Below are positions 5,376 to 49,235 of a stretch of 64,000 bases of DNA, piece by piece. The notes below the pieces were generated by a model. That model was not told the DNA's origin and did no database searches. It was given only the letters and a program-made list of their open reading frames with translations. The position numbers were made by a program, and so were the translations under genes. Source of the stretch: Myxococcota bacterium (GTDB taxonomy: Bacteria > Myxococcota_A > UBA9160 > UBA4427); the NCBI GenBank assembly GCA_965250285.1, contig OZ252299.1, forward strand, positions 2,976,001 to 3,040,000, read 5' to 3'. Positions within the stretch are counted from its first letter, which is position 1; each line of letters begins with the position of its first letter.

Positions 5376-5389
5376 GGACGGACGTCGAC

Positions 5390-33114: not shown

Positions 33115-33115
33115 C

Positions 33116-33799
33116 GTGCGCCTGCTGATCGTCGAGGATCAGCGACGACTCCGCGACCAGCTCACGAACGAGCTCAAGCGGAGCGGCTACGCCGTCGACT
33201 TCGCAGAGAACGGCGAGCGTGCGCTCGCGTGCTTTCGCGACCATCCGTACGACCTCGCGATCGTCGACCTCGGCCTGCCGAAGGTCGACGGCCTCACCGT
33301 GATCGAGCAGGTGCGCGGCGATGGCCTCGACATGCCGATCCTGATCCTCACAGCGCGCAGCGACTGGGAAGAGAAGGTGCGCGGCCTCGAAGCGGGGGCC
33401 GACGACTACCTCGTCAAACCCTTCCACATGGAGGAGCTCAAGGCGCGGCTGCAGGCGCTGCTGCGACGCGCCGGGGGGCGTGCCCACTCGCGCCTGAGCT
33501 TCGGCCCGATCGAGGTCGATACCAGCTCGAAGACCGTGTCGGTCGGGGGCGAAGCGGTCGAGCTGACGAGCTACGAGTACAACGCGCTCGAGGTGATGCT
33601 GCAGCGGCCCGGTGCTGTGATCTCGAAGACCGAGTTCGTCGAGCACCTGTACCACCAGGATTTCGATCGCGACAGCAACGTGATCGAGGTCTTCATCGGC
33701 CGACTTCGCAAGAAGCTCGACCCCGACGGCACGCTCCAGCCGATCGCGACGATCCGCGGCCAGGGCTACCGCTTCGAGCTCGAAGAGGCCGAGGGGTGA
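33116..33799 (+). CDS. OmpR/PhoP-family response regulator
   Basis: LLIVED, DLGLP, LILTAR, GADDYLVKPF, SNVIEVFIGRLRKKL. Confidence 0.95.
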   Translation: MRLLIVEDQRRLRDQLTNELKRSGYAVDFAENGERALACFRDHPYDLAIVDLGLPKVDGLTVIEQVRGDGLDMPILILTARSDWEEKVRGLEAGADDYLVKPFHMEELKARLQALLRRAGGRAHSRLSFGPIEVDTSSKTVSVGGEAVELTSYEYNALEVMLQRPGAVISKTEFVEHLYHQDFDRDSNVIEVFIGRLRKKLDPDGTLQPIATIRGQGYRFELEEAEG

Positions 33800-35154
33800 G
33801 GCTGCGTTCGATCAGCGCGCGCCTGGCCTTTGCGGCGGCTTGCGCCCTGCCGGTCTTTCTCGGGCTGACCGGCTTCGCGATCGAGCGCGCGTTCGGCCAG
33901 GCCCTGCGCGAAGCCGAGCGCGACAAGCTGGCCGTGCACGGCTACCTCGTCCTCGGCGCCACCGAGCTCGAGGAACAGACCCTGCGCCTGCCCTCGACGC
34001 TCGCCGAGCCGCGCTTCGGGCAGCTCGGCTCAGGCCTCTACGCCCGGCTGCGCGACGAGGCCGGACGAGACCACTGGGTCTCTCCTTCGGCCGCGCTCCT
34101 CGACCTGCCCGCCGACGTCCCCGACGTCGCGCTGGGCGAGTGCGTGCTCGTCGAAGTCGACATCGATGCCACACCGACCTTCCAGTCGCAGTGCGCGCTC
34201 GAGTGGGAAGACGTCGCCGGCAACGCCCTGCCGTTTCGGCTGACCATCTGGCACGACCAGTCGGCGTACCTCGCCCAGGTCGCCACGTTTCGGTCGAGTC
34301 TCGTGCGATTCATGGTGGGCGTCGGCATCGTTCTGCTGATCGGACAGCTGGCGGTGCTTCGATTCGGCCTGCGCCCCCTCGGCCGCCTCGTCGGCGACCT
34401 CGACGCCATCGAGGCGGGCGAGCAGACGCGACTGACCGGCACGTATCCGAGCGAGGTCGAGGGCGTGACGACGAGCCTCAACCAGCTGCTCGCCGCCGAA
34501 GAGAGTCGTCGGCGCCGCTACCGCGACACCCTGGCCGACCTGGCGCACAGCTTGAAGACCCCGCTCGCGGTCTTGCGGGCCGCGCTCGACACACGGACGC
34601 CCGACGACGCGCTGCGGGCCGAGTGCGACGAGCAGGTCGAGCGCATGGACGAGATCGTGCAGCACCAGCTCGCGCGGGCGAGCGCGACGAGCGGCCCCAT
34701 CCTCGGCAAGCGCTGCGCCGTCGCGCCCGTGGCCGAGCGCCTCGCCGCGGCCATCGGCAAGATCCACACGGACCGTGGCGTGCGCATCGAGGTCGACGCC
34801 GCGCCCGACCTGTCGGTGCGCGCCGACGAGCCCGAGCTGATGGAGGTGCTCGGCAATCTCGTCGACAACGCGTGCAAGCACGGCGGCGGGCACGTCGACG
34901 TGCGTGCGCGCCGCGAGGGCGACCAGGTGACGATCGAGGTGACCGACGAGGGACCGGGTATCCCGCGCGCGCTCCGCGCACCGATCCTCGAGCGGGGCAC
35001 CCGCGCCGACGTATCGAGTCCGGGCCAGGGGATCGGGCTCTCGGTGGCGGCCGACATCGCGCGCGGTCTCGGCGGCCGTCTCGAGGTCGCGGACGGCGCG
35101 GGGCCGGCAGAACGGCCCGGCGCGCGGCTCGTGCTGAGACTGCCCGCTGGCTAG
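33796..35154 (+). CDS. PhoQ-like sensor histidine kinase
   Basis: Two TM segments, DLAHSLKTPL, GNLVDNACK, DEGPG, GQGIGL; GTGA overlap. Confidence 0.92.
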   Translation: MRLRSISARLAFAAACALPVFLGLTGFAIERAFGQALREAERDKLAVHGYLVLGATELEEQTLRLPSTLAEPRFGQLGSGLYARLRDEAGRDHWVSPSAALLDLPADVPDVALGECVLVEVDIDATPTFQSQCALEWEDVAGNALPFRLTIWHDQSAYLAQVATFRSSLVRFMVGVGIVLLIGQLAVLRFGLRPLGRLVGDLDAIEAGEQTRLTGTYPSEVEGVTTSLNQLLAAEESRRRRYRDTLADLAHSLKTPLAVLRAALDTRTPDDALRAECDEQVERMDEIVQHQLARASATSGPILGKRCAVAPVAERLAAAIGKIHTDRGVRIEVDAAPDLSVRADEPELMEVLGNLVDNACKHGGGHVDVRARREGDQVTIEVTDEGPGIPRALRAPILERGTRADVSSPGQGIGLSVAADIARGLGGRLEVADGAGPAERPGARLVLRLPAG

Positions 35155-35450: not shown

Positions 35451-36257
35451 TCAGCCGAGCATCGGCCAGCAGGTGCGGGGCGCTTGCGTGAAGCACTGCT
35501 CGCGTTCGCTCGACGTGAGCGTCGCGAAGCTCTCGCGGGCGAGCTGAACCAGCTCGGCGTACGACCGGTCGTGCGTCTGGCTGAAGTCCGAGCCCCACAT
35601 CACCCGCGCCGCGCCGAAGCGCGAGACCAGCCGCGACACGAACGCCGAAGCCGCATCGCCGGCCGACTCGAGCACCACCGACGAGACCTTGCAGAAGAGG
35701 TTCGGCTCGTCGGCCAACGCGAAGAGCGGCTCGGGGTCGGCGAAGTTCGGAAACGCGCAGTGGTCGAGCGACATTCGGATCTCGGGAAACCTGCGCAGCA
35801 CGTCGCGCAGCTCTGCGAGTTGATGCCCGAAGATCGTCACGATGACGTGCGCGCCGAGGTGCGCCGCTTCTTCGAAGAGCGGCGCCGTCGTCGGCGCCAC
35901 CAGCCATGAGGGTCCGTCGCGCGTCAGCGCGAAGAGCCGGACCCCATGCATCCCGCGTTCGGTGATCCAGTAGCGCAGCGTCTCGGCGGCCCGCGGCGCT
36001 TCGGCGTCGATGCAACACGCGCTCGCAAAGCGCCCGGGCTCGGCCGCCGCAGCGTCGGCCGCGTAGTCGTTGTCGTACGAGTAGGCGCCCACCGCCTGCA
36101 CGAGGACCGCGCGCTCGACCCCGGCAGCGCCCATGTACACGGCCAACTCTTCGGCCGTGTGGGGTGCTTCGAGGTACCAGGGCCCCGACATCGGCCTCGG
36201 GTTCAGCGGGTAGCGATCGTGGTCGGCGCCAACGACGTGTGTGTGGGTGTCGATCAC
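35451..36257 (-). CDS. Amidohydrolase family protein
   Basis: IDTHTH, LDHC, FGAARVMWGSDF. Confidence 0.88.
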   Translation of the reverse strand: MIDTHTHVVGADHDRYPLNPRPMSGPWYLEAPHTAEELAVYMGAAGVERAVLVQAVGAYSYDNDYAADAAAAEPGRFASACCIDAEAPRAAETLRYWITERGMHGVRLFALTRDGPSWLVAPTTAPLFEEAAHLGAHVIVTIFGHQLAELRDVLRRFPEIRMSLDHCAFPNFADPEPLFALADEPNLFCKVSSVVLESAGDAASAFVSRLVSRFGAARVMWGSDFSQTHDRSYAELVQLARESFATLTSSEREQCFTQAPRTCWPMLG

Positions 36258-36267
36258 GGAGGCCTCG

Positions 36268-36663
36268 CTAGTCGGTCGACATTGAGGCCTCGCCTCGGCG
36301 AATCGTGAGGAACTCCATGCCTTCGGGGCCGCAGGTGAAGCCGTATCGAAAGCCGGCCTCGATCACGATCGCGTCATTCGGGCCGAGCCGCCCCACCCCG
36401 TCATCGAACTCGCAGCCGCCCTTCATCACCACCATCAGCTCGTCGTGATCGTGGTGATGCGGAGGCACGCGAAAGCCGGCGGTCAGCACCGACCGGTTGA
36501 GAAAGAAGCCGCCTTCTCCGGTAGCGAGTCGCTTTCGGCGCGCACCCGTCTTCTTCGCCTGGTCGACCAGCGATCGGGGCGGCTCGGTTCCGGGGCGGGC
36601 GGTCCGAAGCACGTCGTCCCACTCGATCTGCTCGTAGATGAACAGCGTCGGATCGCCCGGCAT
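36268..36663 (-). CDS. Cupin domain protein
   Basis: VPPHHHDHDELMVVMKG..YGFTCGPEGMEF. Confidence 0.8.
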   Translation of the reverse strand: MPGDPTLFIYEQIEWDDVLRTARPGTEPPRSLVDQAKKTGARRKRLATGEGGFFLNRSVLTAGFRVPPHHHDHDELMVVMKGGCEFDDGVGRLGPNDAIVIEAGFRYGFTCGPEGMEFLTIRRGEASMSTD

Positions 36664-37175
36664 CACGCCCTCCCCCGCGCGAGCGCCGCTTCGGCGTCGC
36701 GAGCCAGCTTCTCGACCTCGACGAGCCCGGCCTCGATCTCCGTCGCGTCGAGGCGCGGGACCAGCGCGGCGCCCCCGGCGTGCTCGAGCATCGGCGCGAG
36801 GCGCTCGCGTATCTGGGCGAGCGCCCAGGGCAGCATGGGGCCGTGGGCAATTCGATCGAAGTCGATGATGCGCTGCCGTTCGCCTCCGCGATCGATGTAG
36901 TGATAGTGCGGCTCGTGCTCGAAGAGATCGAAGCGCAGGTACTCGTGACCGTCTTCGACGCCCTCGACGTGCAGCGATACGCCGTTGTCCTGCACAGCAT
37001 CGCCCCCGAGCGCAGCCTGCACCTCCTCCATGGCCTCCCCCTCGTAGTTGGCCTCGAGCTCGGCCTCGTCGAGCAGGCGGTATTCGACGCCGATGCGAAT
37101 CACGCCCGCATCGACGTAGGTCGTGTGCTCGGGATCCGGCGGAATCGGCGGCACGGTGTAGACAGTCCCGGTCAT
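36663..37175 (-). CDS. Conserved-looking hypothetical protein
   Basis: GAGGAGG RBS, coupled overlaps at both ends; GVSLHV..EYLRFD.F..EPHYHY motif. Confidence 0.75.
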   Translation of the reverse strand: MTGTVYTVPPIPPDPEHTTYVDAGVIRIGVEYRLLDEAELEANYEGEAMEEVQAALGGDAVQDNGVSLHVEGVEDGHEYLRFDLFEHEPHYHYIDRGGERQRIIDFDRIAHGPMLPWALAQIRERLAPMLEHAGGAALVPRLDATEIEAGLVEVEKLARDAEAALARGRA

Positions 37176-38041
37176 GCGGTTTCCTCCTCGTCGAGCCGTG
37201 CGAAGATGCGGCGCGCGGTCCCCGAGAGCAGCGCATCGCGCGCGGCGGCGGGCAGCTCGATTTCGTCGAGCCTCGCAAGCGCGTGCCGATGGCCGACCAC
37301 GGGGAAGCTCGTCCCGAGCATCACCCGGCCCTGCCCTTCGCCCTCGATGAATCGCACCAAGTCGTCCGTCCAACGATGTGGTGGCCACGCGCCCGTGCCG
37401 AGCACGACGTTGCCGTGCCGTCGCGTCATCTCGATCGTCTCCTCGACCCAGGGCCAGCCCGTGTGCGAGAGGACGAATGGAACGCTTTCGTACGCCTTCG
37501 CGGGCGCTTCGATGCCATTCGGATGCCCGGGCTCGCTCGGCTCGCGTCCGCCCGAGGCGCCTGCCTGCATCACGACGGGCACGCCGCGATCGGCGGCCAG
37601 CGTGTAGAACGGCGCGTAGTCGGGATGGTCGAAGCGGCGACTCCAGCTGTGGGTGTGGATGTGGAGGCCGACGAACGCCGGCTCGGCCAGCGCCTCGGCT
37701 GCCTGGCGCAACCCGGCGTCGCCGCTCGTCGGATCGAGCGTGAAGAGCCCGGCGAAACGACCGGGGTAGCGCTGCGCCCACGCGACGATGTCGGCCGGAC
37801 GCGTCGTGAACAGCGCGTAGTCGGTGGGGTGCTCGACCGAAGGGGCGTCACACGATGGCAGTACCAGCGTGCGAATGCCCAGCTCGTCCATGCGCGCGAC
37901 CATGGTCTCGACGGTGGCGAACGAGTCGTCGTCGCCGCGTCGGATCTTGATCGACGCGTCCTGGGCAGCGATCGCGTCATCCCACCGGGCGAGGCGGTCT
38001 GGCGTGAAGGCATTGCACCAGTAGTCGATCCAGCCGCTCAC
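37172..38041 (-). CDS. Amidohydrolase family protein with an atypical metal-binding motif
   Basis: IDYWCN, LSHTGWPW, RVMLGTSFP. Confidence 0.82.
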   Translation of the reverse strand: MSGWIDYWCNAFTPDRLARWDDAIAAQDASIKIRRGDDDSFATVETMVARMDELGIRTLVLPSCDAPSVEHPTDYALFTTRPADIVAWAQRYPGRFAGLFTLDPTSGDAGLRQAAEALAEPAFVGLHIHTHSWSRRFDHPDYAPFYTLAADRGVPVVMQAGASGGREPSEPGHPNGIEAPAKAYESVPFVLSHTGWPWVEETIEMTRRHGNVVLGTGAWPPHRWTDDLVRFIEGEGQGRVMLGTSFPVVGHRHALARLDEIELPAAARDALLSGTARRIFARLDEEETA

Positions 38042-39420
38042 GATCGCTCGTCCCGAAATCGCTTGGGCTTCGGCGACGTGTGCAGCTCGGTCCACGCATC
38101 GAGCGCGCCCGGCTTCGCGACCTCGACCGAGATCCGAACGCCCAAGCGCTCCTTGAGTCGGGCCTCCGTGCTCTTCGCGATCTCGGGCCAGCTCGACTCG
38201 GCGCTGCGGGTGACGACGTGCACCGTCATTTCGTCGCGGTGGCCGCTGCGCGTCGCGCGCACGAAGTAGTCGGGCTCGAGGCGCGGATCGTCGAGGGCGA
38301 CCGCCCCCACGGCTTCGGGCCAGACGTTGACCCCGCGCAACTTCACCATGTTGTCGCCGCGCCCCGCAAAGGGGCCCATGCGACGCAGCCAGCTGCCACA
38401 CGCGCACTGCTCGCGCGGGTAGAGCACCGAGAGATCCTGGATGTCGTAGCGGAACTGCGGGCTCCCGGTCTTGTAGATCTCGGTGATGCAGATCGAGCCG
38501 GGCTCGCCATCGGGCAGCGGCTCGCCCGTCTCGGGGTCGACGACCTGCACGACGAACGCGTCTTCGAAGATGTGGAGCCCCTGGCGCTCGGGGCACTCCA
38601 CCGACACCCACTGCACCTCGTGAAAGCCGTAGGATTGATAGTTCGGGGCGCCCCAGGTCGCCTCGAGCTTCTCGCGGTCACCGATATTCGGCAGGGCGCG
38701 AATGTTGAAGTCGCTCTTCGGGTCGAGCCCCATCTCGCGAGCGACGTCAGCGAGGTGCAGCAGGTAGTCGCCCGTCGTCAGGATCGCCGTCGCCTGGTAC
38801 TGATGGGCCAGCTCGACCTGTCGCCGGCTGCTGGTGACCGTGCCGGTGCCGGTCGTCAGTACGACGCAGTTGAGCCACTTGTGGAGCGCTTCGTCGAACG
38901 CGAACGCGCCGTTGTGCGTCGAGTACGCCCAGGCGTTCATGACGACGTCGCCCGGGCGTACGCCCTGCAGATAGAGCGCGCGGGCCATGAGAATCGCGCC
39001 GGCCTCTCGATCCCACTGCGTATAGAGAGTCGGCCGCGGTGCACCGGTCGTGGCCCCGGACATGAAGATGCGGACCGGCTCTTCGAGCACGCCGTCGAGC
39101 GAAGCGCCCTGATAGTCGCCGAGCGGCGGATGCGCCTCGATGCTCTTCCGGATGTCATCGACGCGGTAGGACGGAAACCGCGACAGATCATCGAGTGACC
39201 TGAGATCATTCGGCTCGACACCCGCCGCATCGAAGCGTCGGCGAAAGAAGGGCACTTCGTACGCCCGCTTTGCCCGGTTCTGCAGGCGTTCGAGCTGCCG
39301 CCGCTCGATCTCGTCGGGCTCGGCGAGCCAATCGCCTTCGAAGTACTCGGGCGGCGGCGCATGCGCCCGCGCGAGCGCCTCGTAGTCAACGACCTCGAAA
39401 GGCCTGCGAAAAGTGCTCAC
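38038..39420 (-). CDS. Phenylacetate-CoA ligase (PaaK)-family protein
   Basis: SGATTGAP, YGFHE, GLHIFED, GRGDNMVKLRGVNVWP. Confidence 0.85.
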   Translation of the reverse strand: MSTFRRPFEVVDYEALARAHAPPPEYFEGDWLAEPDEIERRQLERLQNRAKRAYEVPFFRRRFDAAGVEPNDLRSLDDLSRFPSYRVDDIRKSIEAHPPLGDYQGASLDGVLEEPVRIFMSGATTGAPRPTLYTQWDREAGAILMARALYLQGVRPGDVVMNAWAYSTHNGAFAFDEALHKWLNCVVLTTGTGTVTSSRRQVELAHQYQATAILTTGDYLLHLADVAREMGLDPKSDFNIRALPNIGDREKLEATWGAPNYQSYGFHEVQWVSVECPERQGLHIFEDAFVVQVVDPETGEPLPDGEPGSICITEIYKTGSPQFRYDIQDLSVLYPREQCACGSWLRRMGPFAGRGDNMVKLRGVNVWPEAVGAVALDDPRLEPDYFVRATRSGHRDEMTVHVVTRSAESSWPEIAKSTEARLKERLGVRISVEVAKPGALDAWTELHTSPKPKRFRDERS

Positions 39421-40586
39421 GACGGCCCCGTGGCCTCTTCGAACGCCTTCGGCATCAGCTCGTCGGGAAAGCGGTAGAAGTCGACCGCGTTGTCCCAGAG
39501 GATCTTCCGCTTGCTCTCCTCCGAGAGCCGCTCCTGCTCGAGAAAGGTCTCGACCGCGTGCGGGTACTTCGAGTCGGGGTGCGGATAGTCGGTCTCGAAC
39601 AGAATGTGGGTGTCCCCCAGCTCCTCGATCGTGTGGTAGACGAGGTGCTCATCGGGCTCGGTCGTCACCCAGATGTTCTTCTTGAAGTAGTCGATCGGCT
39701 CCTTCGTACACTCTGGCGTCTCGAGCCAGCCCGCCAGCTCGACGTGCTCTTCGATGCGGTGCAGCCACTGCGGCACCCACGCCGAACCCGCCTCCATGTA
39801 GCCGACGCGCAGACGCGGGTACCGCTCGAACACGCCATTCACGATCATCGCGAGCATGGCCATCTGCGCCTCCATCGGGTGCACGCAGGTGTGCCACTCG
39901 ACGAAGCTCTCGAAGCGGTCGTTCCCCGCCGACGGCCCGGCCAACCCCATGAACTCGTGCGTCGCGAACGCGACGTCGAGATCCTGCAAGAGCTCCCAGA
40001 GCGGATCGAAGTACGCATCACCGAGCGTGCGGTGATTGAACGGGTTCGGTCGAGCCCAGAAGCATCGCGTGCCGAGGTGCTCGTACGCGTACTGCACCTC
40101 TTCGAGCGCGCGCGTGATGTCGCCGAGCGGGACCGGCCCGGCAGCGAGGACCGTGCCCCCCGACGTCTCGCGCATCTCTTCGGCCCAGCGGTTGTAGGCG
40201 CGAGCCATCCCGGCCTGCAGGTCGGGATCGATGCCGTCGACCCACATGTCGTAGCCGGGGCCGTAGAGCACCATGATATCGACGCCCTCGACCCGCCCCG
40301 ACTCGGCCACACTCGCACCATCGAAGCCCTTGTCGACCACCGGGCCGTACTTGGCGCGCATCGCCTCGGTGGTCCACTTCACGGCCTCCTGCTGCCGGCC
40401 GTAGAGCGTCTTGTGGCTCTGGGTGTAGCGGCCGTCGACGGTGGCGGGACGAAACCGGTCCATCCCCTCGAAGGGCTGCCGCCACGAGACGCGCGCCTGG
40501 TAGCGCTGGTCGAGGAATCGCTCCCAGAGGTTCTTGGGCTCGACGACGTGCGCGTCGGCGTCGAAGATTTTGAATCCGTTTCGCAT
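39417..40586 (-). CDS. Amidohydrolase family protein
   Basis: FDADAHVVEP, GVFERYPRL..EAG, FETDYPH. Confidence 0.9.
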   Translation of the reverse strand: MRNGFKIFDADAHVVEPKNLWERFLDQRYQARVSWRQPFEGMDRFRPATVDGRYTQSHKTLYGRQQEAVKWTTEAMRAKYGPVVDKGFDGASVAESGRVEGVDIMVLYGPGYDMWVDGIDPDLQAGMARAYNRWAEEMRETSGGTVLAAGPVPLGDITRALEEVQYAYEHLGTRCFWARPNPFNHRTLGDAYFDPLWELLQDLDVAFATHEFMGLAGPSAGNDRFESFVEWHTCVHPMEAQMAMLAMIVNGVFERYPRLRVGYMEAGSAWVPQWLHRIEEHVELAGWLETPECTKEPIDYFKKNIWVTTEPDEHLVYHTIEELGDTHILFETDYPHPDSKYPHAVETFLEQERLSEESKRKILWDNAVDFYRFPDELMPKAFEEATGPS

Positions 40587-40625
40587 AGCTTGTGACTCCG
40601 TCTTGCGGGCCGTGACCCGGCTCGT

Positions 40626-41102
40626 TCAGTTGGTTCGAGTGTCTTCGAGCCACTCGGGGAGATCGATTGGTGGATTGGGCAGCTTCTTCGCGCCCTTCTC
40701 GGCCAGCAGCTTCTCGAAGCCCTCGGGATCGGCCGGCCACGATCGGGGGTCGCCCATCATGACCTCGAAGAGCTCGACGCCGTCGGGCCCTGCGATGAAC
40801 GGGCCGAACGCCGCGCCGTGCTCGAGCGTGATGTGCATGCCCTTGGTGCAGCGCACGTCGCCGCACATCATCTCCCCTTCGAGGACGAAGAGAATGTGAT
40901 CGCTATTGTGCCCATGCTTGTGCACCATCATGCCGGGGTCCCACTTCGCATACAGACACAGCATGTCGGGCGTGAACTCGAGCCACTTCTCGAAGATCGA
41001 GACGCGCCGGTCGCCGTGCTGCTGGGCGCGCACCTCGTGCCACTTCTCGTCGTCCGCGTGTCGAAATCGAACCTGCGGTGTCTTGTCGTCGGATTCGGCC
41101 AT
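40626..41102 (-). CDS. Cupin-like protein
   Basis: HKHGHNSDHILFVLEGE..GPFIAGPDGVELF. Confidence 0.78.
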   Translation of the reverse strand: MAESDDKTPQVRFRHADDEKWHEVRAQQHGDRRVSIFEKWLEFTPDMLCLYAKWDPGMMVHKHGHNSDHILFVLEGEMMCGDVRCTKGMHITLEHGAAFGPFIAGPDGVELFEVMMGDPRSWPADPEGFEKLLAEKGAKKLPNPPIDLPEWLEDTRTN

Positions 41103-41109
41103 GGGCTCC

Positions 41110-41937
41110 TCATGCGGGCTCGTCGCCCTCGAGCGTGACGCGATGCATGACGCGCCGCTCTGTGTAGTCAGGCACCGCGAAGTGCTGCACGGTGCGGTTG
41201 TCCCAGAACGCGATCGAGTGCGGCTCCCACGAGAACCGACACTGATACTCGGGCGATCGCACGTGGTCGTTCAAGAACGGCAACAGCAGATCGTTCTCAC
41301 GCTCGCTCAAGCCGACGATGTGCGTCGTCGAGTTGCCGTTCACATAGAGCGCTTTGCGGCCCGTGACGGGATGCGTCCGCACGACCGGATGCTCGACCGG
41401 CGGGAACGTCGCTCGCGCGTGCTCGAGTCGCTGCTCGTCGAAGATGCCCTTGCGCACGGCGCGGCGCATCGGCTTCGTGATGTCATGGACGGCCCGCAGC
41501 TGCGAGACGAAAGCACGCATCTCTTTCGACAGACCGTCGTAGGCCGCGACTGCGCTGGCGAAGCAGGTATCGCCCCCCACCGAGGGCAGCTCCACTGCCT
41601 TGAGGATCGAGCCGAGCGGCGGCTTCGCCATGAACGTGTTGTCGCTGTGCCAGTTGTCGGCGCCTTGCCCCCGCGGCTCCACCTGATCGAGCACCATCAC
41701 TTCGGGGCGCAGATCGCTGTCGGGGGCCATGGGCGGGATGCTGATCTCGCCGAACTGCTCGGCGAACGCGACCTGCTGGTCGGGCGTGATCGCCTGGTCT
41801 CGAAAGAAGAGCACGCCGTGCTCGAGGAGCGCCGCCTCGATGCCGGCCTGCTCGTCCGCCGAGAGGGGCTGGCGCAGGTCGACCCCGGACACCGTCGCCC
41901 CGATCGTCTTCGTCACCGGCGAGACGGCCAAGCTCAC
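41110..41937 (-). CDS. TauD/TfdA-family Fe(II)/2-oxoglutarate dioxygenase
   Basis: WHSDNTF, GGDT, HPVVRTHP, WDNRTVQH..R. Confidence 0.93.
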   Translation of the reverse strand: MSLAVSPVTKTIGATVSGVDLRQPLSADEQAGIEAALLEHGVLFFRDQAITPDQQVAFAEQFGEISIPPMAPDSDLRPEVMVLDQVEPRGQGADNWHSDNTFMAKPPLGSILKAVELPSVGGDTCFASAVAAYDGLSKEMRAFVSQLRAVHDITKPMRRAVRKGIFDEQRLEHARATFPPVEHPVVRTHPVTGRKALYVNGNSTTHIVGLSERENDLLLPFLNDHVRSPEYQCRFSWEPHSIAFWDNRTVQHFAVPDYTERRVMHRVTLEGDEPA

Positions 41938-42845
41938 CGGATCACCTCGTCGCCGAAGCGCGACACCCAGTCGATCACCTCGTCCCGGGTCTGCCCCCGC
42001 ACCCCGATGGAGACCCACGTGACCCCGATCGCCTCCAGCGCCCTCACCTGCTCGCGCAGCTCGGTGAGATCGCTCGGCCCCTTCGCGTTCATGGCGTACC
42101 CGAACGGCACGAAGTTCACATCGATGGGCTCGGTCCGGCCCCACTGCTTCGCATGGCTCTTCAAGAAGGCGATGCGCTCGCCCAGGTCTTCGATCGACTC
42201 GATCCCGGCCGTCCGGGCACGGGCCGAGTGGGCGCGCGCGATCGGGAACGGGCTCCACCCCTGGGCGTGCTCGACTGCGCGGCGCATCGCCAGCCGCGTA
42301 TTGCCCCCCACCCAGATCGGCGGATGCGGCGTCTGCAGCGGAGCCGGACGCATCGTGTTGCCCGCCGCGTCGAAGTGTGCGCCCGAGAGCTTCACCGATT
42401 CGCCCCGCCATGCCTGCTTCATGGCAACGAGCGCCTCGTCGGTCAACGCGTTGCGGTCTTCGAAGCGCGCGCCGAGCGCGCGGTACTCGCCCTCGAGATA
42501 GCCCGCGGCGACCCCCACGATGACCCGCCCGCCCGAGACGACGTCGAGGCTCGCGATCGCCTTCGCCGTCATGAACGGGTTGCGATAGGGCAGGACCAGA
42601 ATGTGCGTGTGGAGCCGCAGCTTCGTCGTCGCGGCGGCAGCTGCGGTCAATGACACGAACGGGTCGAGAGCGTGATGGCCGCCCGTCGCGAGCCAGTCGT
42701 CGGACGGAAACGGATGCTCGGTCACGAAGCACGCGTCGAAGCCCGCGCGCTCGATCGCCGAGGCCGTCTCGCGGATCGCCTCGAGGCTCGTAAACGTCTC
42801 GCGCTGCTCGACGCGATCGGTCGGCAGCTGCACCGAGAACTTCAC
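41934..42845 (-). CDS. LLM-class oxidoreductase, probably F420-dependent
   Basis: ERAGFD..TEHP, DPFVSL, LPYRNP, PPIWVGG. Confidence 0.85.
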   Translation of the reverse strand: MKFSVQLPTDRVEQRETFTSLEAIRETASAIERAGFDACFVTEHPFPSDDWLATGGHHALDPFVSLTAAAAATTKLRLHTHILVLPYRNPFMTAKAIASLDVVSGGRVIVGVAAGYLEGEYRALGARFEDRNALTDEALVAMKQAWRGESVKLSGAHFDAAGNTMRPAPLQTPHPPIWVGGNTRLAMRRAVEHAQGWSPFPIARAHSARARTAGIESIEDLGERIAFLKSHAKQWGRTEPIDVNFVPFGYAMNAKGPSDLTELREQVRALEAIGVTWVSIGVRGQTRDEVIDWVSRFGDEVIR

Positions 42846-43945
42846 GCCGGCACCTCGAACCCGTAGAGCTTCGCGGCGTTCGAAGCGAAGAGTCTCGTCT
42901 TGACGTCTTCGCTGAGGTCGCTGCGCTTCTCGAGGATGCGGACCGAGTCGGGGAACGCACAGTCGAAATGACAGTAGTCGGACGAGTAACAGATGACGTC
43001 GTCCGCCACGTGCTCGAACACATAGGGCACCATCTTCTCGTCGGGCTCGGTCGTCAGGAAACAGCGACCCGCAAAGTACTCCGACGGCGGTCGATCGATC
43101 TCGGGCGCCAGCTCGGGCATCATCTCCCAGTGCTCGTCGAGGCGTTCGAGCCAGAACGGCAGCCACCCGACGCCCGCCTCGAGAAAGCCCACCCGCAGCG
43201 TCGGAAAGCGCGCGAGGATGCCCCCGACCGTGAAGTTGAACACGGCCTGCATCGCACCCAACGGATGCGTGAGCGCGTGCACCCCGAGCCGCGTGTCGAA
43301 GCGATCGATGGCGAACGGCGTCTGCCCCGGCGCCTGCCCTCCGCCGTGCGTACAGACCGCGACGCCGAGGCGTTCGGCCGTAGCCCACACGACGTCGAAG
43401 CTCGGATCGTCGAGGTTCTTCTCACGAATGTGCGTCGCCGTGACCATGCCGACGAACCCGTGCTGGGTCACGCAGCGCTCGAGCTCCTCGGCCGCCGCCT
43501 TCGGCTCGATCATCGGCAGCTTCGCGACGAGCTTCAGCCGGTCGGGCGCGTAGCTCGCATACTCGGCGCGCGCGTCGTTCAGCGTTCTGCACAGTGCAGC
43601 GGAGAAGTCGACGTCGTCCATGGCCCACTCCTCGCCCGAGCCCGGCGGGAACAGCACCGCAACGTCGATCCCTTCGAGATCCATGTCGGGCATGCGCTTC
43701 TCGGGGTCGAACATGCCGGGCTGGGTCGGCACCGCGAACTCGAGATCGTCTTCGTCGGGGATCACCTCGTCGGCGTCGTCGTGCGCGCGAAGCCCGGCGC
43801 CCGGCATGCTCGCGTACTTCTTGCGCATCGCCTCGACGTAGGCGCGCATCGTCGAAGCGTGCTTGGCCGGAACGCGACGCCGCCAACCGAGGGGCTCACC
43901 ACCGTGCCCATCTGCGTCGATCACGTAGTGACCGAATCGACCCAT
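42842..43945 (-). CDS. Amidohydrolase family protein
   Basis: IDADGH, MDLEGIDVAVLFP, FLEAGVGW, YSSDYCHFD. Confidence 0.9.
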   Translation of the reverse strand: MGRFGHYVIDADGHGGEPLGWRRRVPAKHASTMRAYVEAMRKKYASMPGAGLRAHDDADEVIPDEDDLEFAVPTQPGMFDPEKRMPDMDLEGIDVAVLFPPGSGEEWAMDDVDFSAALCRTLNDARAEYASYAPDRLKLVAKLPMIEPKAAAEELERCVTQHGFVGMVTATHIREKNLDDPSFDVVWATAERLGVAVCTHGGGQAPGQTPFAIDRFDTRLGVHALTHPLGAMQAVFNFTVGGILARFPTLRVGFLEAGVGWLPFWLERLDEHWEMMPELAPEIDRPPSEYFAGRCFLTTEPDEKMVPYVFEHVADDVICYSSDYCHFDCAFPDSVRILEKRSDLSEDVKTRLFASNAAKLYGFEVPA

Positions 43946-43976
43946 GTCTGTCTCCTTCGCACCGCTCGAAGCGCGG

Positions 43977-44504
43977 CTATGCCGTACGGGTGAGCAGGCA
44001 CCCCATTACGTCTTCGATCGCCGCATCTGCCCGAGCGCACAGTGCGTCATCGGCCACGCCGCCCACCGGGTGGGCGATCGCGACGATGCGCGCTCCATCG
44101 AGCCCGACCTGCTCGCCCGACTGGCGCGCCAGATCGAAGAAGCGCTCGGTGGCCACCACCACCGTGGGGGTGCCCATCGACTCCAGCCGTGCCGTGTCGT
44201 GGAGACTCCACGACGTGCACGACCCTCAATCCGCGGTCCCCGTCAAGACGAGGTCCGCCTCGGCCGCGATGGCCTCGAGCAGCGCGTCGTCGCAGGGCGT
44301 CGCGGCGGTGCGCTTGCGGTGCACGCCGACGAACTCGACGCCGGTGCGCTCGGCGAGGCGCTCGGCCATCTGAGTCATCAAGAGCGCCGCACCGGGCTTG
44401 CCGTTGTCGAGCACGGCGAGTCGCCGCGTCGAGAGCAGCTCGGGCGACGGCGCCAAGGCGGCGCCGCGCTGTCCAACCCGGCCTTCGGGCGATTCGATCT
44501 TCAT
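43977..44504 (-). CDS. UGSC-family selenoprotein, 175 aa, Sec at codon 93 (TGA at 44226-44228)
   Basis: The ORFs 44226-44504 and 43977-44177 share a frame; readthrough gives GTAD-U-GSCTSWSLHD; GGAGGAG RBS; hairpin just 3' of the UGA. Confidence 0.88.
44196..44214 (-). promoter_or_regulatory. Bacterial SECIS-like hairpin
   Basis: GUCGUGGA-GUC-UCCACGAC, 11 nt 3' of the UGA, with GU in the apical loop. Confidence 0.75.
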
Positions 44505-44550
44505 GTGGCTCTCCTCCGGCGGCCGCGCGCCGCCTGAACTTCACCGGCCG

Positions 44551-45591
44551 TCAGGGCGCGACCGGCAGCGTCACGCTCTGGGTCATGCCCCAGCTGGGAA
44601 TCACGCACGAGTGCTTGCCCGCTCCGCCCGCGACCAGAACGCGGATGTGATCGGGGTGGTCGGTGATCGGCATCGCATCGTCGTCGCCGAGGGCACGCAG
44701 CCACGGCCGCACCTGCACGACATCGAACGCGCCGCGCAGCACGCGCGCCGGCAGGCGCGCACGTTCGTAGAGGTACGACTGCACGTCCCGGCGCGTCCAC
44801 CCGGCGCCCGCGATCGTCGCGGCATGCTCGGGACCGAGCACGACGAAGAACTCGGCCGAAGACACCGGCGCGTTGTTCGAGCCGAGCGTCGCCATCACGC
44901 TCGCGCCCTTGTCGAGGATCGTCTCGGGCGCGTCGCTCTCCATGTCGTGGAAGTTGTGCGGGTTCTCGCCGCAGTGGATCGTCACGGCGCTGGGCGCGTC
45001 GACACCGCGACTGCGCGGATACGAGGCCCATGGCGAGGCCGCCTCGTTCTCGGCGATGCAGTACGCATACTTCGAGGGCTGGCCCTGGGTCGATGCATCG
45101 CCCGCGCCGGGCCGCGCGCCCGCCACATGCATGAGGATCAGGCGAAGCGCGCGCCCCACCGTCGCATTGGCGCGGTTGCCCGGGCCGAACGTGCCCAGCC
45201 CCGCGTTGAACTCGCCCGCCCGCACGGCCTCGCCGTGCACGATGAGCAGCGGCGCGACGGGATGCGTCGTCGCGTTCACGCCGCGCAGGTTCAGCTCGGG
45301 CCGCCCGAGGGCGCGCACCGCGCTGACGAGCACCGGCAGCAGCCCGGGCTTGCAGCCAGCGAGCACGGCGTTGATGGCGATGATGCGCCGTGTGGCCTCG
45401 CCGAGCCGCGGCTCGAGGCGTGCGATGACTTCGTCGTCGCCCCGCCCTGCGTCGCCGCCTGCGCCGAGCATGGCTTCGACTCGATCGCGCGTCGGCGGGA
45501 CGAGCGGCAGACCGTCCCCCCATCCCTTCGCTTCGAAGAGCTCGATCAGCGCCTCGGGCGAGTCGGTCGACAGCTCGAGCTCGTCGTTCAT
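44551..45591 (-). CDS. Uncharacterised protein of the family usually found next to UGSC genes
   Basis: GWGDGLPLVPPT, AINAVLAGC, GNRANATVGRA, CIAENE, VAGGAG. Confidence 0.78.
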   Translation of the reverse strand: MNDELELSTDSPEALIELFEAKGWGDGLPLVPPTRDRVEAMLGAGGDAGRGDDEVIARLEPRLGEATRRIIAINAVLAGCKPGLLPVLVSAVRALGRPELNLRGVNATTHPVAPLLIVHGEAVRAGEFNAGLGTFGPGNRANATVGRALRLILMHVAGARPGAGDASTQGQPSKYAYCIAENEAASPWASYPRSRGVDAPSAVTIHCGENPHNFHDMESDAPETILDKGASVMATLGSNNAPVSSAEFFVVLGPEHAATIAGAGWTRRDVQSYLYERARLPARVLRGAFDVVQVRPWLRALGDDDAMPITDHPDHIRVLVAGGAGKHSCVIPSWGMTQSVTLPVAP

Positions 45592-47324
45592 GCGCCCGCT
45601 CCCGTGCCCGCCGGTCGCACGAGTCGCCCCGGTAGCGCCGTCTGCAGCTGCCCCCACAACACGATCGGCTCGCCCGCGACGATCGTCGCCGCGAAGCCGT
45701 TGGGCCGCGCCGAGAACCGCCCCTGGTCGCCGGGCAGGTCGTAGACCATGCGCTTCGTGCCGGGCCCGACCGTCGCGGGGTCGAAGATCATCAGATCGGC
45801 CGCATAGCCCGGCAGCAGCGCGCCCCGCCCCGCAAAGCCGGCCATCGCCGCGGGCACCTGCGTCAGCTGACGGATGCCCTCTTCGAGGGTCCACACCTCG
45901 CGGTCGATCACCCAGTGGCGCAGGAAGTAGCTCGACCAGTCGGCGCCGTCGTCGCGGTCGAGGTGTGCGCCGCCGTCGGAGACGCCCATGAGCATCGACG
46001 GGTGCTTCATGCTCTCTTCGACCGAGGCCGCCCACTCGGGGGTGCGATTCTCCCAGCGGAACTTCATCTTGAGATCTTCGCTGAGTGCGAGATCGAGCAT
46101 CACGTCGGCCGGCGCCTGGCCCATCTCGCGTGCGAGGTCGGCGATGCTGCGCCGCAGGTATTTCTCGTTGCCGGGGTCGGTCACCTCGTCGACGAACGTC
46201 ACGTCCCAGTGCGGCGGTGGCAGGGTCGAACCGGCGTCCGGATCGCGGTTCGGGCGATCGACCGCATGGCGCAGCTCGTCGCGCACCACGGGGTCGCGCA
46301 GGCGCGCGAGCTTCTCGTCGTGCGAGAGCGACATGAACGCCGCCCACGGAAACACGCCGGCATAGAGCGGAGAGCCGGCATCGAGATCGATCGGCCGATC
46401 GAACGGGTGATTGCGAAGCAGCGAGAACACCGCCGCGCCGTCGCGGGCCGCGGCATCGAGGAATCGCTTCGCGTTCGCCCAGCCCGCGGTGGGTGCATCG
46501 ACCTTGTCGCGCCCGCCCACGCCCTGGATCACGATCGGCAGACGGCTCTTCTGACCGAGCTCGATCAGCAGCGCCTCGTCTTCACCGTCGAGCCCGCCGA
46601 TCACGCTCTTCGGCAGGTACGAAATGCTCCCCCCGCCGGCGCGGCCGGCCTCTTCGCACAGCGCCACGAGCTCTTCGCGCGAAGCGAAGCGACTCGGGAT
46701 CGGGCGATCGTCTCCATCGACCTGCGTCGGCACCGACGACGATGAGAAGCCCGCCGCACCGGCCGCCATCGCCTCGCCGACGAGGGCACGCATCTGCCCG
46801 ATCTCTTCTTCGGTGGCGTGGCGCTCGCTGCCGTCGGCACCCATGACGAAGCGGCGGAGGCTCGAGTGGCCGATGTAGCAGGCGAGGTTCACGCCCAGCC
46901 GCCCCTCTCGCGCGCGCAGGTAGTCGGGGAAGGACTCGAAATCCCACTCGACCCCCTCGAGCGCGACGGGCTCCATGCCCTCGACCTTCGCGAACATCGC
47001 CTTGATGTAGGGCCGCGCCGCTTCTCGGGTCGGAGCGATCGAGAAGCCACAGTTGCCTGCGAGCACGGTGGTCACGCCGTGGTAGCAGGACGACGTCGCG
47101 TACGGGTCGAACGTGAGCTGCGGGTCGTAGTGCGTGTGGGCGTCGATGATGCCCGGCGCCACGATGTGGCCGTCGGCGTCGATCGTGCGGCGGGTGTCCT
47201 TCGCGCCGGGCACGTGGCCGACCGCGGCGATGACACCGTCGCGCACGGCGACGTCGCCGCGCCGCCGGGCGAGCCCCGTGCCGTCGACGACGATGCCGCC
47301 CCGCACGACGAGATCCCACGTCAC
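45588..47324 (-). CDS. N-acyl-D-amino-acid deacylase-like amidohydrolase
   Basis: APGIIDAHTHYD, GVTTVLAGNCG, SDGGAH, ADLMIFDP. Confidence 0.9.
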   Translation of the reverse strand: MTWDLVVRGGIVVDGTGLARRRGDVAVRDGVIAAVGHVPGAKDTRRTIDADGHIVAPGIIDAHTHYDPQLTFDPYATSSCYHGVTTVLAGNCGFSIAPTREAARPYIKAMFAKVEGMEPVALEGVEWDFESFPDYLRAREGRLGVNLACYIGHSSLRRFVMGADGSERHATEEEIGQMRALVGEAMAAGAAGFSSSSVPTQVDGDDRPIPSRFASREELVALCEEAGRAGGGSISYLPKSVIGGLDGEDEALLIELGQKSRLPIVIQGVGGRDKVDAPTAGWANAKRFLDAAARDGAAVFSLLRNHPFDRPIDLDAGSPLYAGVFPWAAFMSLSHDEKLARLRDPVVRDELRHAVDRPNRDPDAGSTLPPPHWDVTFVDEVTDPGNEKYLRRSIADLAREMGQAPADVMLDLALSEDLKMKFRWENRTPEWAASVEESMKHPSMLMGVSDGGAHLDRDDGADWSSYFLRHWVIDREVWTLEEGIRQLTQVPAAMAGFAGRGALLPGYAADLMIFDPATVGPGTKRMVYDLPGDQGRFSARPNGFAATIVAGEPIVLWGQLQTALPGRLVRPAGTGAGA

Positions 47325-47818
47325 CGGTTCGCCCCCCCTTCGAAGAGGTCGAGCAGCTGCATCAGCACGCGGTCGGCGTCCTTCAGCTCGGTCTCCGGGA
47401 GCGGGTCGAGCAGGGCCTGCGTCGCATCGAGGTACGCGCGAAACACCCGCTCGTGCAGCTCGGCCCCCTCCGCGGTCAGCGAGACCACCGAGCCCCGCCC
47501 ATCGGTCGGGTCGGGCGCGCGCTCGACGAGCCCGCGCTCTTCGAGCCGCCTGAGGATCTTGGTCATGCCGCCAGACGAGCGCTGCAGCCGGCTATAGAGC
47601 CGACTCGGTGTCAGCTGATAAGGCGCGCCGGCGCGCCGCAGTGCCGCGAGCACGCCGTAGTCGCCCGACGACAGGCCGAAGGGAGCGAGCACCTGCTGCT
47701 GAAACGAGTCGATCAGCACCGAGAGCCGGGCGAGCCGCACCATCGGCGGAAACGTCCGGGTGTCGAGCTCGGGGTACTCACGCTCCCACGCGGTCGAGAG
47801 ATCATCGATCCAGCTCAT
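47321..47818 (-). CDS. MarR family regulator (PecS/TamR-like N-terminus)
   Basis: AWEREYPELD, LRRAGAPYQLTP, SGGMT..LEERGLVER..DGR. Confidence 0.9.
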   Translation of the reverse strand: MSWIDDLSTAWEREYPELDTRTFPPMVRLARLSVLIDSFQQQVLAPFGLSSGDYGVLAALRRAGAPYQLTPSRLYSRLQRSSGGMTKILRRLEERGLVERAPDPTDGRGSVVSLTAEGAELHERVFRAYLDATQALLDPLPETELKDADRVLMQLLDLFEGGANR

Positions 47819-47850
47819 GGCATTGCCCTCGCTTGCTCGACCTCGTTATA

Positions 47851-47874
47851 CTTTCCGGAAAGCTTTCCCGCAAG
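47851..47874. promoter_or_regulatory. Candidate MarR operator: two tandem CTT-N6-AAG boxes
   Basis: CTTTCCGGAAAG (perfect palindrome) then CTTTCCCGCAAG, between divergent marR and MFS genes. Confidence 0.65.
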
Positions 47875-47900
47875 CAAAAAACAGATCGCCGAGGAGCTCC

Positions 47901-49235
47901 ATGTCGAGCAGTCCGCTGGGCCAAGAGCCGAGCAGCAAGCCGGGTCGTGAGCCGGACGGGGTGCCCGGCGAGGGGTCGACGGGGGCCCGCGCGCGCGGGC
48001 CCCGGTACGCGAACTACGTGCTGGGCGTCTTCTTTCTCGTCTCGGTCTTCAACTACGTCGACCGCCAGCTGGTCTCGGTGCTGCTGCAGCCGATCAAGGA
48101 CGAGTTCGGGGTCTCGGACGCCTGGATGGGCGCCCTCACCGGGTTCGCTTTCATGATCGTGCACTCGGTCTTCGGCATTCCGCTCGCGCGCTGGGCCGAT
48201 TCGGGCAACCGCAAGTGGATCCTCACCCTCGGCCTCACGGTCTGGAGCGCGTTGACCGCAGCGTCGGGCCTCGCGCGTTCGTTCGGCTTCTTGATGTTCG
48301 CGCGGATGGGTGTCGGCATCGGCGAAGCGGCCGGCACGCCGACCGCCCACTCGATGATCTCCGACTACTTCCCGCTCGAGCGCCGGGCCACCGCGCTCGC
48401 CGTCTACGCGATGGGCGTCTACGTGGGCATCATGTTCGGCTACATCGCCGCGGGTTGGCTCGGGGAGCAGCTCGGCTGGCGTCTCACGTTCATCGTCGTC
48501 GGCCTGCCCGGCCTGCTGATCGCGCTGCTGCTCTACTTCACCGTCGACGAGCCCGCGCGCACCACCTCCGTCGAGTCGCACCCCCTCGGCGAGGTCATGC
48601 GATACCTCTTCGCGAAGCCGGCCTACGTGATCCTGCTCGTCGCCGCGTCGTTCCACGCCGCCGCGGCCTACTGCATCGCGCTCTGGGCCCCGACGTTTCT
48701 GCTGCGCGTGCACGGCATGACGCTCACCGAGATGGGCCTTTCGCTCGGCCTGCTCACCGGCGTCGCGGGGGCTGCCGGCTCGCTCGCGGGCGGCGTGGTG
48801 TCGGATCGTCTCGCCCGAGCGACCAAGGCGGCGTACGGCTGGACCACCGCGTTCGCGGCCTTCGCCGCCCTCCCCTTCGCCATCGGGTTCGTCTCGAGCG
48901 AGCGTACGTGGGTGGCGCTCGCCTGGTTCGCTCCGATGACGTTCCTCACGGGTCTCTACATCGGGCCGCTGTATGCGATGAACCAGGGCCTGGCCCGCCC
49001 GCGCATGCGCGCAATGGCCGTCGCGATCCACCTCTTCGTCGTGAGCATCCTGGGCGGTGGGGTCGGGCCGTGGGCAGTGGGCTTGATGAACGACGCGTTC
49101 CAGGCCGAGTACGGTGACGCCGGCATTCGACAGTCGCTGATCTGGGTGCAGTCGATCGGACTGGTCGCCGCCGGCACCTGCTACCTGCTCGCTTCGCGCA
49201 CACTCGCGCGGGACATGGAGGGGACCGAGACGTAG
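47901..49235 (+). CDS. Spinster-like MFS transporter
   Basis: NYVDRQ, ARMGVGIGEA, SMISDYFP..RATAL. Confidence 0.9.
   Translation: MSSSPLGQEPSSKPGREPDGVPGEGSTGARARGPRYANYVLGVFFLVSVFNYVDRQLVSVLLQPIKDEFGVSDAWMGALTGFAFMIVHSVFGIPLARWADSGNRKWILTLGLTVWSALTAASGLARSFGFLMFARMGVGIGEAAGTPTAHSMISDYFPLERRATALAVYAMGVYVGIMFGYIAAGWLGEQLGWRLTFIVVGLPGLLIALLLYFTVDEPARTTSVESHPLGEVMRYLFAKPAYVILLVAASFHAAAAYCIALWAPTFLLRVHGMTLTEMGLSLGLLTGVAGAAGSLAGGVVSDRLARATKAAYGWTTAFAAFAALPFAIGFVSSERTWVALAWFAPMTFLTGLYIGPLYAMNQGLARPRMRAMAVAIHLFVVSILGGGVGPWAVGLMNDAFQAEYGDAGIRQSLIWVQSIGLVAAGTCYLLASRTLARDMEGTET

Follow-up and report, generated by a model that had tools for sequence, protein, structure and literature searches.

A conserved, modular gene cluster that combines a UGSC selenoprotein with predicted oxygenases of the amidohydrolase fold in a Myxococcota bacterium

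What might a bacterium do with a run of genes that brings together a selenoprotein of the UGSC family and five proteins of the amidohydrolase fold, and does the selenoprotein belong to the same pathway as its neighbors? This run lies in a 64-kb window, by which we mean the whole stretch of DNA that we analyzed (positions 2,976,001 to 3,040,000 of contig OZ252299.1), in a Myxococcota genome that consists of one contig of 6.25 Mb. It comprises 14 genes on the minus strand (35451-47818), marR and then 13 more, and a transporter gene of the major facilitator superfamily (MFS) diverges from it (47901-49235). A sequence-only reading of the window had described this gene run and its order, which we recovered, and had proposed that it encodes an undescribed catabolic pathway. 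We found that the 14 genes form a conserved and modular cluster. From the gene content, we think that the chances are about even that it encodes a MarR-repressed, O2-dependent funnel for a single N-acylated or amide-bearing organic acid or a few related ones.

A conserved and modular gene cluster

With the divergent transporter first and then from the marR end onwards, the genes are as follows. (AH1 to AH4 are four of the proteins of the amidohydrolase fold, and AROs are amidohydrolase-related dinuclear oxygenases.)

47901..49235, plus strand: MFS transporter (PF07690), divergent from marR; a candidate importer, weakly linked to the run
47321..47818, minus strand: MarR-family regulator, 165 amino acids (PF12802, PF01047)
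45588..47324, minus strand: D-aminoacylase-like amidohydrolase ("deacylase"), 578 amino acids (PF07969, Amidohydro_3), with the HxH, GNC and SDG motifs kept
44551..45591, minus strand: UGSC partner protein (clade B), 346 amino acids, no Pfam or NCBIfam match
43977..44504, minus strand: UGSC selenoprotein, 175 amino acids, with selenocysteine (Sec) 93 in U-G-S-C (PF24696, NF041046)
42842..43945, minus strand: AH1, Amidohydro_2, a Cys-variant ARO-like protein (D-G-H ... D-Y-C-H-F-D)
41934..42845, minus strand: LLM-class oxidoreductase (TIGR03619, above cut-off), predicted to be F420-dependent; an optional member
41110..41937, minus strand: TauD-family Fe/2-oxoglutarate dioxygenase (PF02668; PRK09553)
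40626..41102, minus strand: cupin1, 158 amino acids, H-x-H-x3-H motif, Cupin_7-like
39417..40586, minus strand: AH2, Amidohydro_2, a predicted ARO (D-A-H ... E-T-D-Y-P-H-P-D)
38038..39420, minus strand: PaaK-like acyl-CoA ligase, 460 amino acids; closest in PDB to phenylacetate-CoA ligases
37172..38041, minus strand: AH3, Amidohydro_2 fold, without the usual beta-1 HxH/DxH and beta-8 Asp
36663..37175, minus strand: DUF7700 protein, 170 amino acids (PF24777)
36268..36663, minus strand: cupin2, 131 amino acids (PF07883, Cupin_2, below cut-off)
35451..36257, minus strand: AH4, HxH-type amidohydrolase (Amidohydro_2), LigI/fuconolactonase-like; a predicted lactonase

Eight of the 13 junctions overlap (seven by 4 bases, as ATGA or GTGA, and one as TGATG), as had been seen from the sequence, and the other five are gaps of 7-46 bases. 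The gene that had been left as hypothetical is present and has an assignable family, DUF7700. The divergent gene does encode an MFS protein; only the MFS_1 and generic MFS superfamily models pass, which does not confirm the spinster type.

All 14 genes recur in the same order, at 67-93% identity and with different flanks, in 3 of 60 related genomes (G001, G005 and G031), and another relative (G020) has 13 of the 14 in order. Smaller versions also occur. Two relatives (G027 and G032) keep eight genes: marR, the deacylase, the partner, UGSC, AH1, LLM, cupin1 and AH4. A third (G023) also keeps eight, with TauD and cupin2 standing where the other two have AH1 and LLM, which leaves marR, the deacylase, the partner, UGSC, cupin1 and AH4 as common to the 8-gene versions. 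The LLM gene is absent from the loci of G020 and G023. In one more relative (G026), the gene set is split over two contigs. Close homologs are labeled as Myxococcota or Deltaproteobacteria.

Rearranged subsets are found in three Acidimicrobiia (G255, G061 and G065) and at four other loci (L135 and L154-156); some of them add hydantoinase A/B, a CN hydrolase, a second LLM or a mycothiol-S-transferase. Six loci have the CN hydrolase cluster, and hydantoinase A/B is found in G255, G061, G109 and L154. In metagenomes, among the best 80 of 433 loci retrieved with cupin1 (many of them short), 43 have TauD, 22 cupin2, 13 AH2 and 7 UGSC. AH3 travels with the ligase and is present in 9 of 12 metagenome loci with PaaK. 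The MFS ortholog adjoins marR in G005 and G031 (2 of the 8 relative loci with marR) and also in L027. Because the order is kept in relatives while partial or rearranged sets occur elsewhere, we consider the cluster to be real and modular. A literature search, largely without subscription papers, found no description of it, which agrees with the proposal that the cluster is an undescribed one.

Two other points concern the origin of the cluster. Chance assembly of expanded paralogs is ruled out because orthologs at 67-93% identity hold their order. A comparison of gene identities between the operon and its flanks was too thin for calling horizontal transfer.

Three individual loci are worth recording. 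In G020, a CN hydrolase beside marR is 83% identical to a stand-alone one of our genome (G000:C1:2462318-2463325), which is not linked to the cluster. At another locus (L103:2-1298), UGSC and cupin1 come immediately after a fragment of marR, and a partner gene is missing between them. Finally, a TauD-cupin1-PaaK block has near it a short piece of the partner gene that contains an internal stop (L165:4740; G014:C425:4749-4934). The internal stop suggests a decayed copy, and the intact clade-B pair of G014 is on another contig.

Predicted oxygenases among the amidohydrolase-fold proteins

The sequence-only reading counted five amidohydrolases, and here our annotation departs from it: just two of the five carry hydrolase motifs. 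These are the D-aminoacylase-like protein, whose closest relative in PDB is D-aminoacylase (E = 6.7e-42) and whose motifs are conserved in 19 sequences, and AH4, which has HxH, DH and GSD motifs. AH4 is predicted to be a lactonase, although its matches to LigI and fuconolactonase are weak (E = 2.7e-8 and 9e-12, far below the cut-offs).

AH2 and AH1 instead resemble AROs, a class introduced in PMC10811679. PMC13154177 defines AROs by two motifs, D-x-H (N-terminal) and D-x-P-H-x-D/E (C-terminal), and reports that the second does not occur in the characterized hydrolases and decarboxylases of this fold. AH2 has the PF04909 fold (E = 1.4e-27), and both ARO motifs are present in 16 of 16 orthologs; its top matches in PDB are 4dzi, 8sm9, DitZ and PtmU3. 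AH2 is predicted to be a dinuclear oxygenase of the ARO class. All 24 orthologs of AH1 have D-Y-C-H-[WF]-D at the C-terminus, and the N-terminal motif is D-G-H in the window's protein (a DxH was called in 19 of 24). AH1 keeps the ARO ligand residues, with the proline of the motif changed to cysteine, and is predicted to be a dinuclear enzyme that is ARO-like rather than a member of the class. A search with the published ARO motif would miss AH1 because an invariant cysteine stands in place of the proline.

The last of the five, AH3, has neither hydrolase nor ARO motifs. An N-terminal DxH or HxH is found in 0 of 11 orthologs, and beta-8 reads G-T-[SG]-F-P in 10 of 11; other invariant histidines (HTHS and SHTGWPW) are kept. 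The motifs do not support a reading of the five as hydrolases throughout: AH2 and probably AH1 look ARO-like, and in AH3 the metal ligands typical of the fold are missing.

These motifs bear on a mainly hydrolytic route, in which the five proteins would open and dismantle a heterocycle. All five do have amidohydrolase folds, the closest solved relatives of AH1 are ACMSD decarboxylases, and further C-N hydrolases stand beside other copies of the cluster. But AH2 has both motifs of the oxygenases throughout its orthologs, AH1 retains the same ligand residues, and AH3 is without the usual ligands, so we consider a hydrolytic route to be very unlikely.

Genome-wide, the strict ARO motif is present in 11 of 24 amidohydrolase_2-like matches. 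Two further matches carry D-x-G-H-W-D, a second variant without the proline, and one of these adjoins the DUF7700 paralog (C1:4257499). This is the only DUF7700 paralog in the genome, and it too is beside ARO-like genes.

A UGSC selenoprotein and its partner

The UGSC gene has a single in-frame TGA, at codon 93 (44228-44226). If the TGA is read through, the protein passes the cut-offs of PF24696 (E = 6.8e-44) and NF041046. The genome encodes selA, selB and selD (all above cut-off) and has a tRNA-Sec. A putative selenocysteine insertion sequence (SECIS) follows the codon:

44196..44214, minus strand: SECIS hairpin, 8-pair stem with a 3-base loop, 14-32 bases 3' of the UGA

We compared the 36 bases starting at the Sec codon across 65 distinct copies, 47 with TGA and 18 with a cysteine codon. 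The full 8-pair stem is formed by 40 of the 47 TGA copies and by 0 of the 18 cysteine copies. Furthermore, the serine codon in the loop is AGT in 47/47 TGA copies and 0/18 cysteine copies, and AGT is rare elsewhere (5 of 184 serine codons across the other 13 genes of the run). (The folding energy of the SECIS by itself is not significant, z = -1.5.) The stem and the AGT pattern, compared between TGA and cysteine copies, rule out that the TGA is a true stop. As had been proposed, this gene encodes a real selenoprotein, in which Sec is predicted to be incorporated at position 93.

The model of UGSC (pLDDT 92.3) consists of five strands and helices in alternation, and its third helix opens with U-G-S-C. 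Foldseek searches with this model gave generic alpha/beta matches (TM at most 0.51), flavodoxins among them, and no thioredoxin was listed. The partner belongs to a family with 5661 representatives at E <= 0.001 and has a confident model (pLDDT 95.7). It has no clear solved relative, and fold searches were weak: the best VIA match had a Z of 6.3, and the best Foldseek match was class I fumarate hydratase (E = 4e-4, TM 0.23-0.29). Such weak matches to a predicted model do not show that the fold is new.

PrdB and GrdB are the B selenoproteins of proline and glycine reductase. Sequence searches of Pfam and PDB gave no link between UGSC and PrdB; profile comparison alone gave it. PF07355 was listed for 0 of 18 UGSC proteins at E <= 10, and the PF07355 model stops at about the Sec position. 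We aligned UGSC with HHalign to 29 PrdB-like proteins, which contain a TGA and were found with PF07355 in relatives (one off-frame row of 30 was dropped). Over 69 columns, in which the U-x-x-C motifs line up, the alignment had a probability of 86.9 (E = 4.2e-6), and controls (reversed, 30 shuffled and 5 unrelated alignments) had probabilities of 2.2 or less. A more far-reaching idea is that the clade-B UGSC and its fold-orphan partner are a PrdB-like selenoenzyme, which might carry out a reductive bond cleavage within an aerobic pathway, downstream of AROs that include a hitherto unrecognized Cys-motif subfamily. We put this forward tentatively and think it unlikely.

PrdB-like genes also occur in this genome. 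It has three partial matches to PF07355 (G000:C1:3706134, 120896 and 3939078), one of which (L202) has an in-frame TGA in U-P-x-C, and in G031 a PrdB-like gene (PF07355) adjoins the operon.

A second UGSC locus of this genome (G000:C1:2261707-2263750; L006:11705-13751) belongs to clade A and has a longer partner with an N-terminal CxxC domain. It is divergent from a gene with the ARO motif and near another TauD paralog, and partner homologs at about 40% identity are present in most relatives.

Both loci invite the explanation that the UGSC pair is an electron donor to dinuclear oxygenases, in place of the Rieske ferredoxin that high-potential AROs lack. UGSC is directly upstream of AH1, no ferredoxin is encoded in the run, and the second locus also adjoins an ARO-motif gene; Rieske ferredoxins are largely absent near high-potential AROs, according to PMC13154177. 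On the other hand, AH1 and AH2 are found without the pair at many loci, and the locus of G023 has the pair without AH1 or AH2. Adjacency is also cheap evidence, because 11 of the 24 amidohydrolase_2-like matches in this genome have the strict motif. We see this as the most improbable of the explanations discussed here.

Clade-B UGSC pairs occur with cupin1 and AH4

Partner homologs are present in 49 of the 60 relatives, and clade B (64-86% identity), to which the window's partner belongs, is present in 13. All 13 of these relatives have cupin1, as compared to 18 of the 60 overall. In two of them (G029 and G059), the clade-B pair and cupin1 are both present but unlinked. Cupin1, whose H-x-H-x3-H motif is conserved in 78 sequences, is the most constant marker of the system. 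(Cupin1 has no Pfam match; it is Cupin_7-like by language-model features and weakly matches TM1459, E = 0.044.)

We then counted these genes in 151 genomes of Acidimicrobiia, the class of G065, which itself had been picked for having clade B; the thresholds for presence were set query by query. The clade-B partner is found in 12 genomes and cupin1 in 20, with an overlap of 12 (1.6 expected), or 11 of 11 if G065 is set aside. AH4-like genes are found in 10 genomes, and 8 of these have clade B. Orthologs of TauD and PaaK are found in 2, which both have clade B as well. Two controls behaved differently: the clade-A partner of our genome is in 34 of the 151, with cupin1 in 7 of the 34 (4.5 expected), and a phosphotriesterase-like gene is in 5, with cupin1 in 1. 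Across GTDB, cupin1 is present in 37 of 50 clade-B genomes searched (50 of the 57 listed). The link is genome-wide rather than positional, and it is specific to clade B, with cupin1 and AH4.

In Embleya sp. MST-111070 (L072:9013-11650), AH4, the clade-B partner and a cysteine form of UGSC stand together, and a cupin1 homolog is elsewhere (G103:C1:643149).

Predicted MarR control

We propose that MarR acts at the promoter of its own gene, where two elements overlap:

47845..47873, minus strand: predicted sigma-70 promoter of marR, with -35 TTGCGG (47873-47868), a 17-base spacer and -10 TATAAC (47850-47845)
47858..47867, no strand assigned: palindrome GAAAGCTTTC, inside the promoter spacer; candidate MarR operator

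The promoter was read by eye from the sequence and an alignment and is not among the sites of a promoter and terminator scan. The scan performed at chance level, and near marR it listed only an overlapping plus-strand site (47823-47852). The palindrome or a close variant lies 5' of marR in all 9 of the relatives that were aligned (the window included). Of the 25 members of the marR cluster, 15 have it; among the 10 without it are 4 distant marR genes (34-44% identity) and 1 truncated region. That the palindrome is unique in the genome is not evidence, because one exact copy compares with 1.5 expected. Orthologs of the CN hydrolase and of the 2-hydroxyacid dehydrogenase are elsewhere in this genome and lack the palindrome. 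MarR may bind the palindrome, and the cluster is probably regulated by MarR through this conserved site, as the sequence-only reading had supposed.

The dioxygenase and the ligase

The TauD homolog narrowly passes PRK09553 (317.3 against a cut-off of 313), and its closest relative in PDB is TauD from E. coli (E = 1.5e-79). It keeps the HxD...H triad and R270, with the changes H70P, Y73A, N95A, S158P and F206S. We take H70, Y73, N95 and R270 to be the taurine-binding residues of TauD, and we likewise presume that S158 and F206 have roles there. Because H70, Y73, N95, S158 and F206 are replaced, taurine is unlikely to be the substrate; because R270 is kept, another anionic substrate is suggested. 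We rejected the use of taurine or sulfonates by the cluster, as just R270 of the four binding residues remains.

Phenylacetate-CoA ligases are the closest relatives in PDB of the PaaK-like ligase (E = 1.8e-57), which is below the equivalog cut-offs (228 versus 646 bits and 230 versus 700 bits). We also ruled out the phenylacetate pathway, as the ligase is below cut-off and there is no epoxidase. The genome encodes cofD alongside the predicted F420-dependent LLM protein.

A funnel, and the evidence against it

In the funnel that we propose, the MFS protein would import the compound and the deacylase would remove an acyl group, with a CN hydrolase or an ATP-dependent lactamase perhaps helping in other copies. 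The TauD-like dioxygenase, AH2 and AH1 would hydroxylate C-H bonds, with AH2 probably acting on a CoA ester from the adjacent ligase. Further downstream, cupin1, the lactonase-like AH4, and UGSC with its partner would act on a common intermediate, for which UGSC would serve as the nucleophile or reductant through its PrdB-like U-x-x-C. The nesting of gene sets suggests this arrangement: an optional upper set (the deacylase, the TauD-like protein, AH1, LLM, and the AH2-ligase-AH3-DUF7700 block) would feed a more constant lower set, cupin1 and then UGSC and its partner with AH4. The substrate may contain an amide, lactam or N-acyl group, because C-N hydrolases recur beside the cluster, and a carboxylate, because there is a ligase.

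Several observations weigh against this funnel or against a place for UGSC in it. The families are expanded in this genome (16 paralogs for AH1, 30 for LLM, 13 for TauD and 9 for the deacylase), AH1 fails the strict ARO motif and is closer in PDB to decarboxylases than to AROs, neither a ferredoxin nor a reductase is found inside the 14-gene run, and no substrate clue is specific. Among 15 metagenome loci with this marR (at least 58% identity; several are close kin), TauD is present in 14 and the UGSC pair in 2, so the pair is absent from 13. It is also absent from 5 of 18 cupin1-positive relatives and from 8 of 20 cupin1-positive Acidimicrobiia. Conversely, 55 of the 57 clade-B loci listed from GTDB (where there are at least 57) lack cupin1 within the flank examined, and 2 have it nearby; no cupin1 match was found in 13 of the 50 clade-B genomes searched (completeness not given). 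A third control in Acidimicrobiia speaks against a specific link: a CoA-transferase subunit that matches PDB 6co6 is found in 48 of the 151 genomes, including 12 of 12 with clade B and 19 of 20 with cupin1. Because of this nesting, part of the overlap may be due to a common lifestyle or ancestry, and P values would overstate it because kin genomes are not independent and these counts have no tree-based correction. The selenoprotein pair is dispensable to the cluster. The context that had been proposed for UGSC therefore stands in part: clade B co-occurs with cupin1 and AH4 across genomes, while most cluster copies do not include the pair and most clade-B loci are without the cluster.

The main rival builds on these absences. 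The UGSC pair and AH4 might be a separate module that was recruited, in one Myxococcota lineage, into an unrelated operon of MarR, TauD, cupin, ARO and ligase genes, with the co-occurrence reflecting a shared catabolic lifestyle. Besides the many cluster copies without the pair, the neighbors of listed clade-B loci suggest this: an SDR gene in 25 of the 57, AH4 in 16 and a 2-hydroxyacid dehydrogenase in 12. Also, every clade-B genome of Acidimicrobiia is within the probable steroid-degrader set of 48. However, within those 48 genomes clade B still overlaps with cupin1 in 12 of 12 (4.8 expected) and clade A in 7 of 19 (7.5 expected), and the 8-gene versions hold the pair and cupin1 even though they lack TauD-AH2-PaaK or AH1-LLM. 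We regard recruitment as a serious possibility, but as unlikely.

The same 48 genomes raise the question of whether the cluster takes in a steroid or terpenoid derivative, such as a conjugated acid, and feeds steroid-ring catabolism. The CoA-transferase subunit is presumably the steroid-ring IpdA, and it is nearly always present with cupin1 and clade B, as described above. Among the AROs near AH2 are PtmU3, which acts on diterpenoids, and DitZ. PMC13154177 describes DitZ as acting on diterpenoids. Yet 29 of the 48 genomes lack cupin1, the PaaK-family ligases with solved structures use small acids, and the nesting may be phylogenetic. We find a steroid or terpenoid substrate quite unlikely, and the funnel for N-acylated or amide-bearing acids remains our preferred reading.

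Genes around the cluster

Window positions 677-11601 resemble steroid C/D-ring catabolism, with a CoA-transferase subunit that matches 6co6, a PRK07938 enoyl-CoA hydratase, acyl-CoA dehydrogenases and thiolases. Just past the MFS gene are a ferredoxin-reductase-like gene and a divergent cytochrome P450 (49980-52550), which we left out of the system because they are not seen at the relatives' loci. A response regulator and a sensor kinase (33092-35154) converge on the end of the operon and are likewise not seen at those loci.

Significance

With 255 sequences, UGSC belonged to the most frequent selenoprotein families of the Global Ocean Sampling (GOS) survey (PMC2398784), and a 2026 review still counts it with the largely uncharacterized selenoproteins (PMC13188914). 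If the pair were a PrdB-like selenoenzyme, then this family, which is among the most abundant of aquatic selenoproteins, would have its first assigned pathway. The clade-B link to cupin1 and AH4, the candidate operator, and a named Embleya strain whose chromosome is complete make the function of UGSC testable. The cluster also offers an ARO coupled to a CoA ligase and a Cys-variant ARO-like subfamily outside the published motif. Our analysis newly re-annotates amidohydrolase-fold proteins as predicted oxygenases, recognizes a subfamily with a Cys variant of the motif, proposes an operator for MarR, and ties one clade of UGSC specifically to cupin1 and AH4. All of the families are known except for that of the partner, and without a substrate the cluster is an orphan catabolic pathway of known families.

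Comparison with known systems

The phenylacetate (paa) and anaerobic indoleacetate (iaa) pathways share a PaaK-like ligase with our run, and some copies of the cluster have a hydantoinase-like lactamase as well. In contrast to those pathways, the run lacks a paaABCE epoxidase, a mutase and a molybdenum hydroxylase. As compared to TauD from E. coli, the dioxygenase is alike in its metal triad and R270 and differs at H70, Y73, N95, S158 and F206.

AH2 shares the PF04909 fold and both motifs with the AROs PtmU3, DitZ, SfbO and AibH1H2 (PMC10811679 and PMC13154177), and like DitZ it has a glutamate two residues ahead of the C-terminal motif. Our run departs from those AROs in that it encodes no Rieske ferredoxin, that it couples AH2 to a PaaK-like ligase, AH3 and DUF7700, and that an invariant cysteine of AH1 replaces the motif's proline.

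Our UGSC shares with its family (PF24696, NF041046; PMC2398784) the U-G-S-C motif, an in-frame TGA, a SECIS and an adjacent, unnamed partner. Possibly this partner is the "Unknown_1" fusion domain of that paper. A thioredoxin-like fold was suggested there for the family, whereas our model is a repeating beta-alpha domain. The clade-B partner lacks the N-terminal extension of clade A, and clade B tracks with cupin1 and AH4. Finally, UGSC can be aligned with PrdB-like Sec proteins of related genomes over a strand-U-x-x-C-helix-strand region; it differs from PrdB and GrdB (PF07355) in having no PF07355 match, in having a partner without detected likeness to the pyruvoyl-forming PrdA or GrdE, and in its aerobic context.

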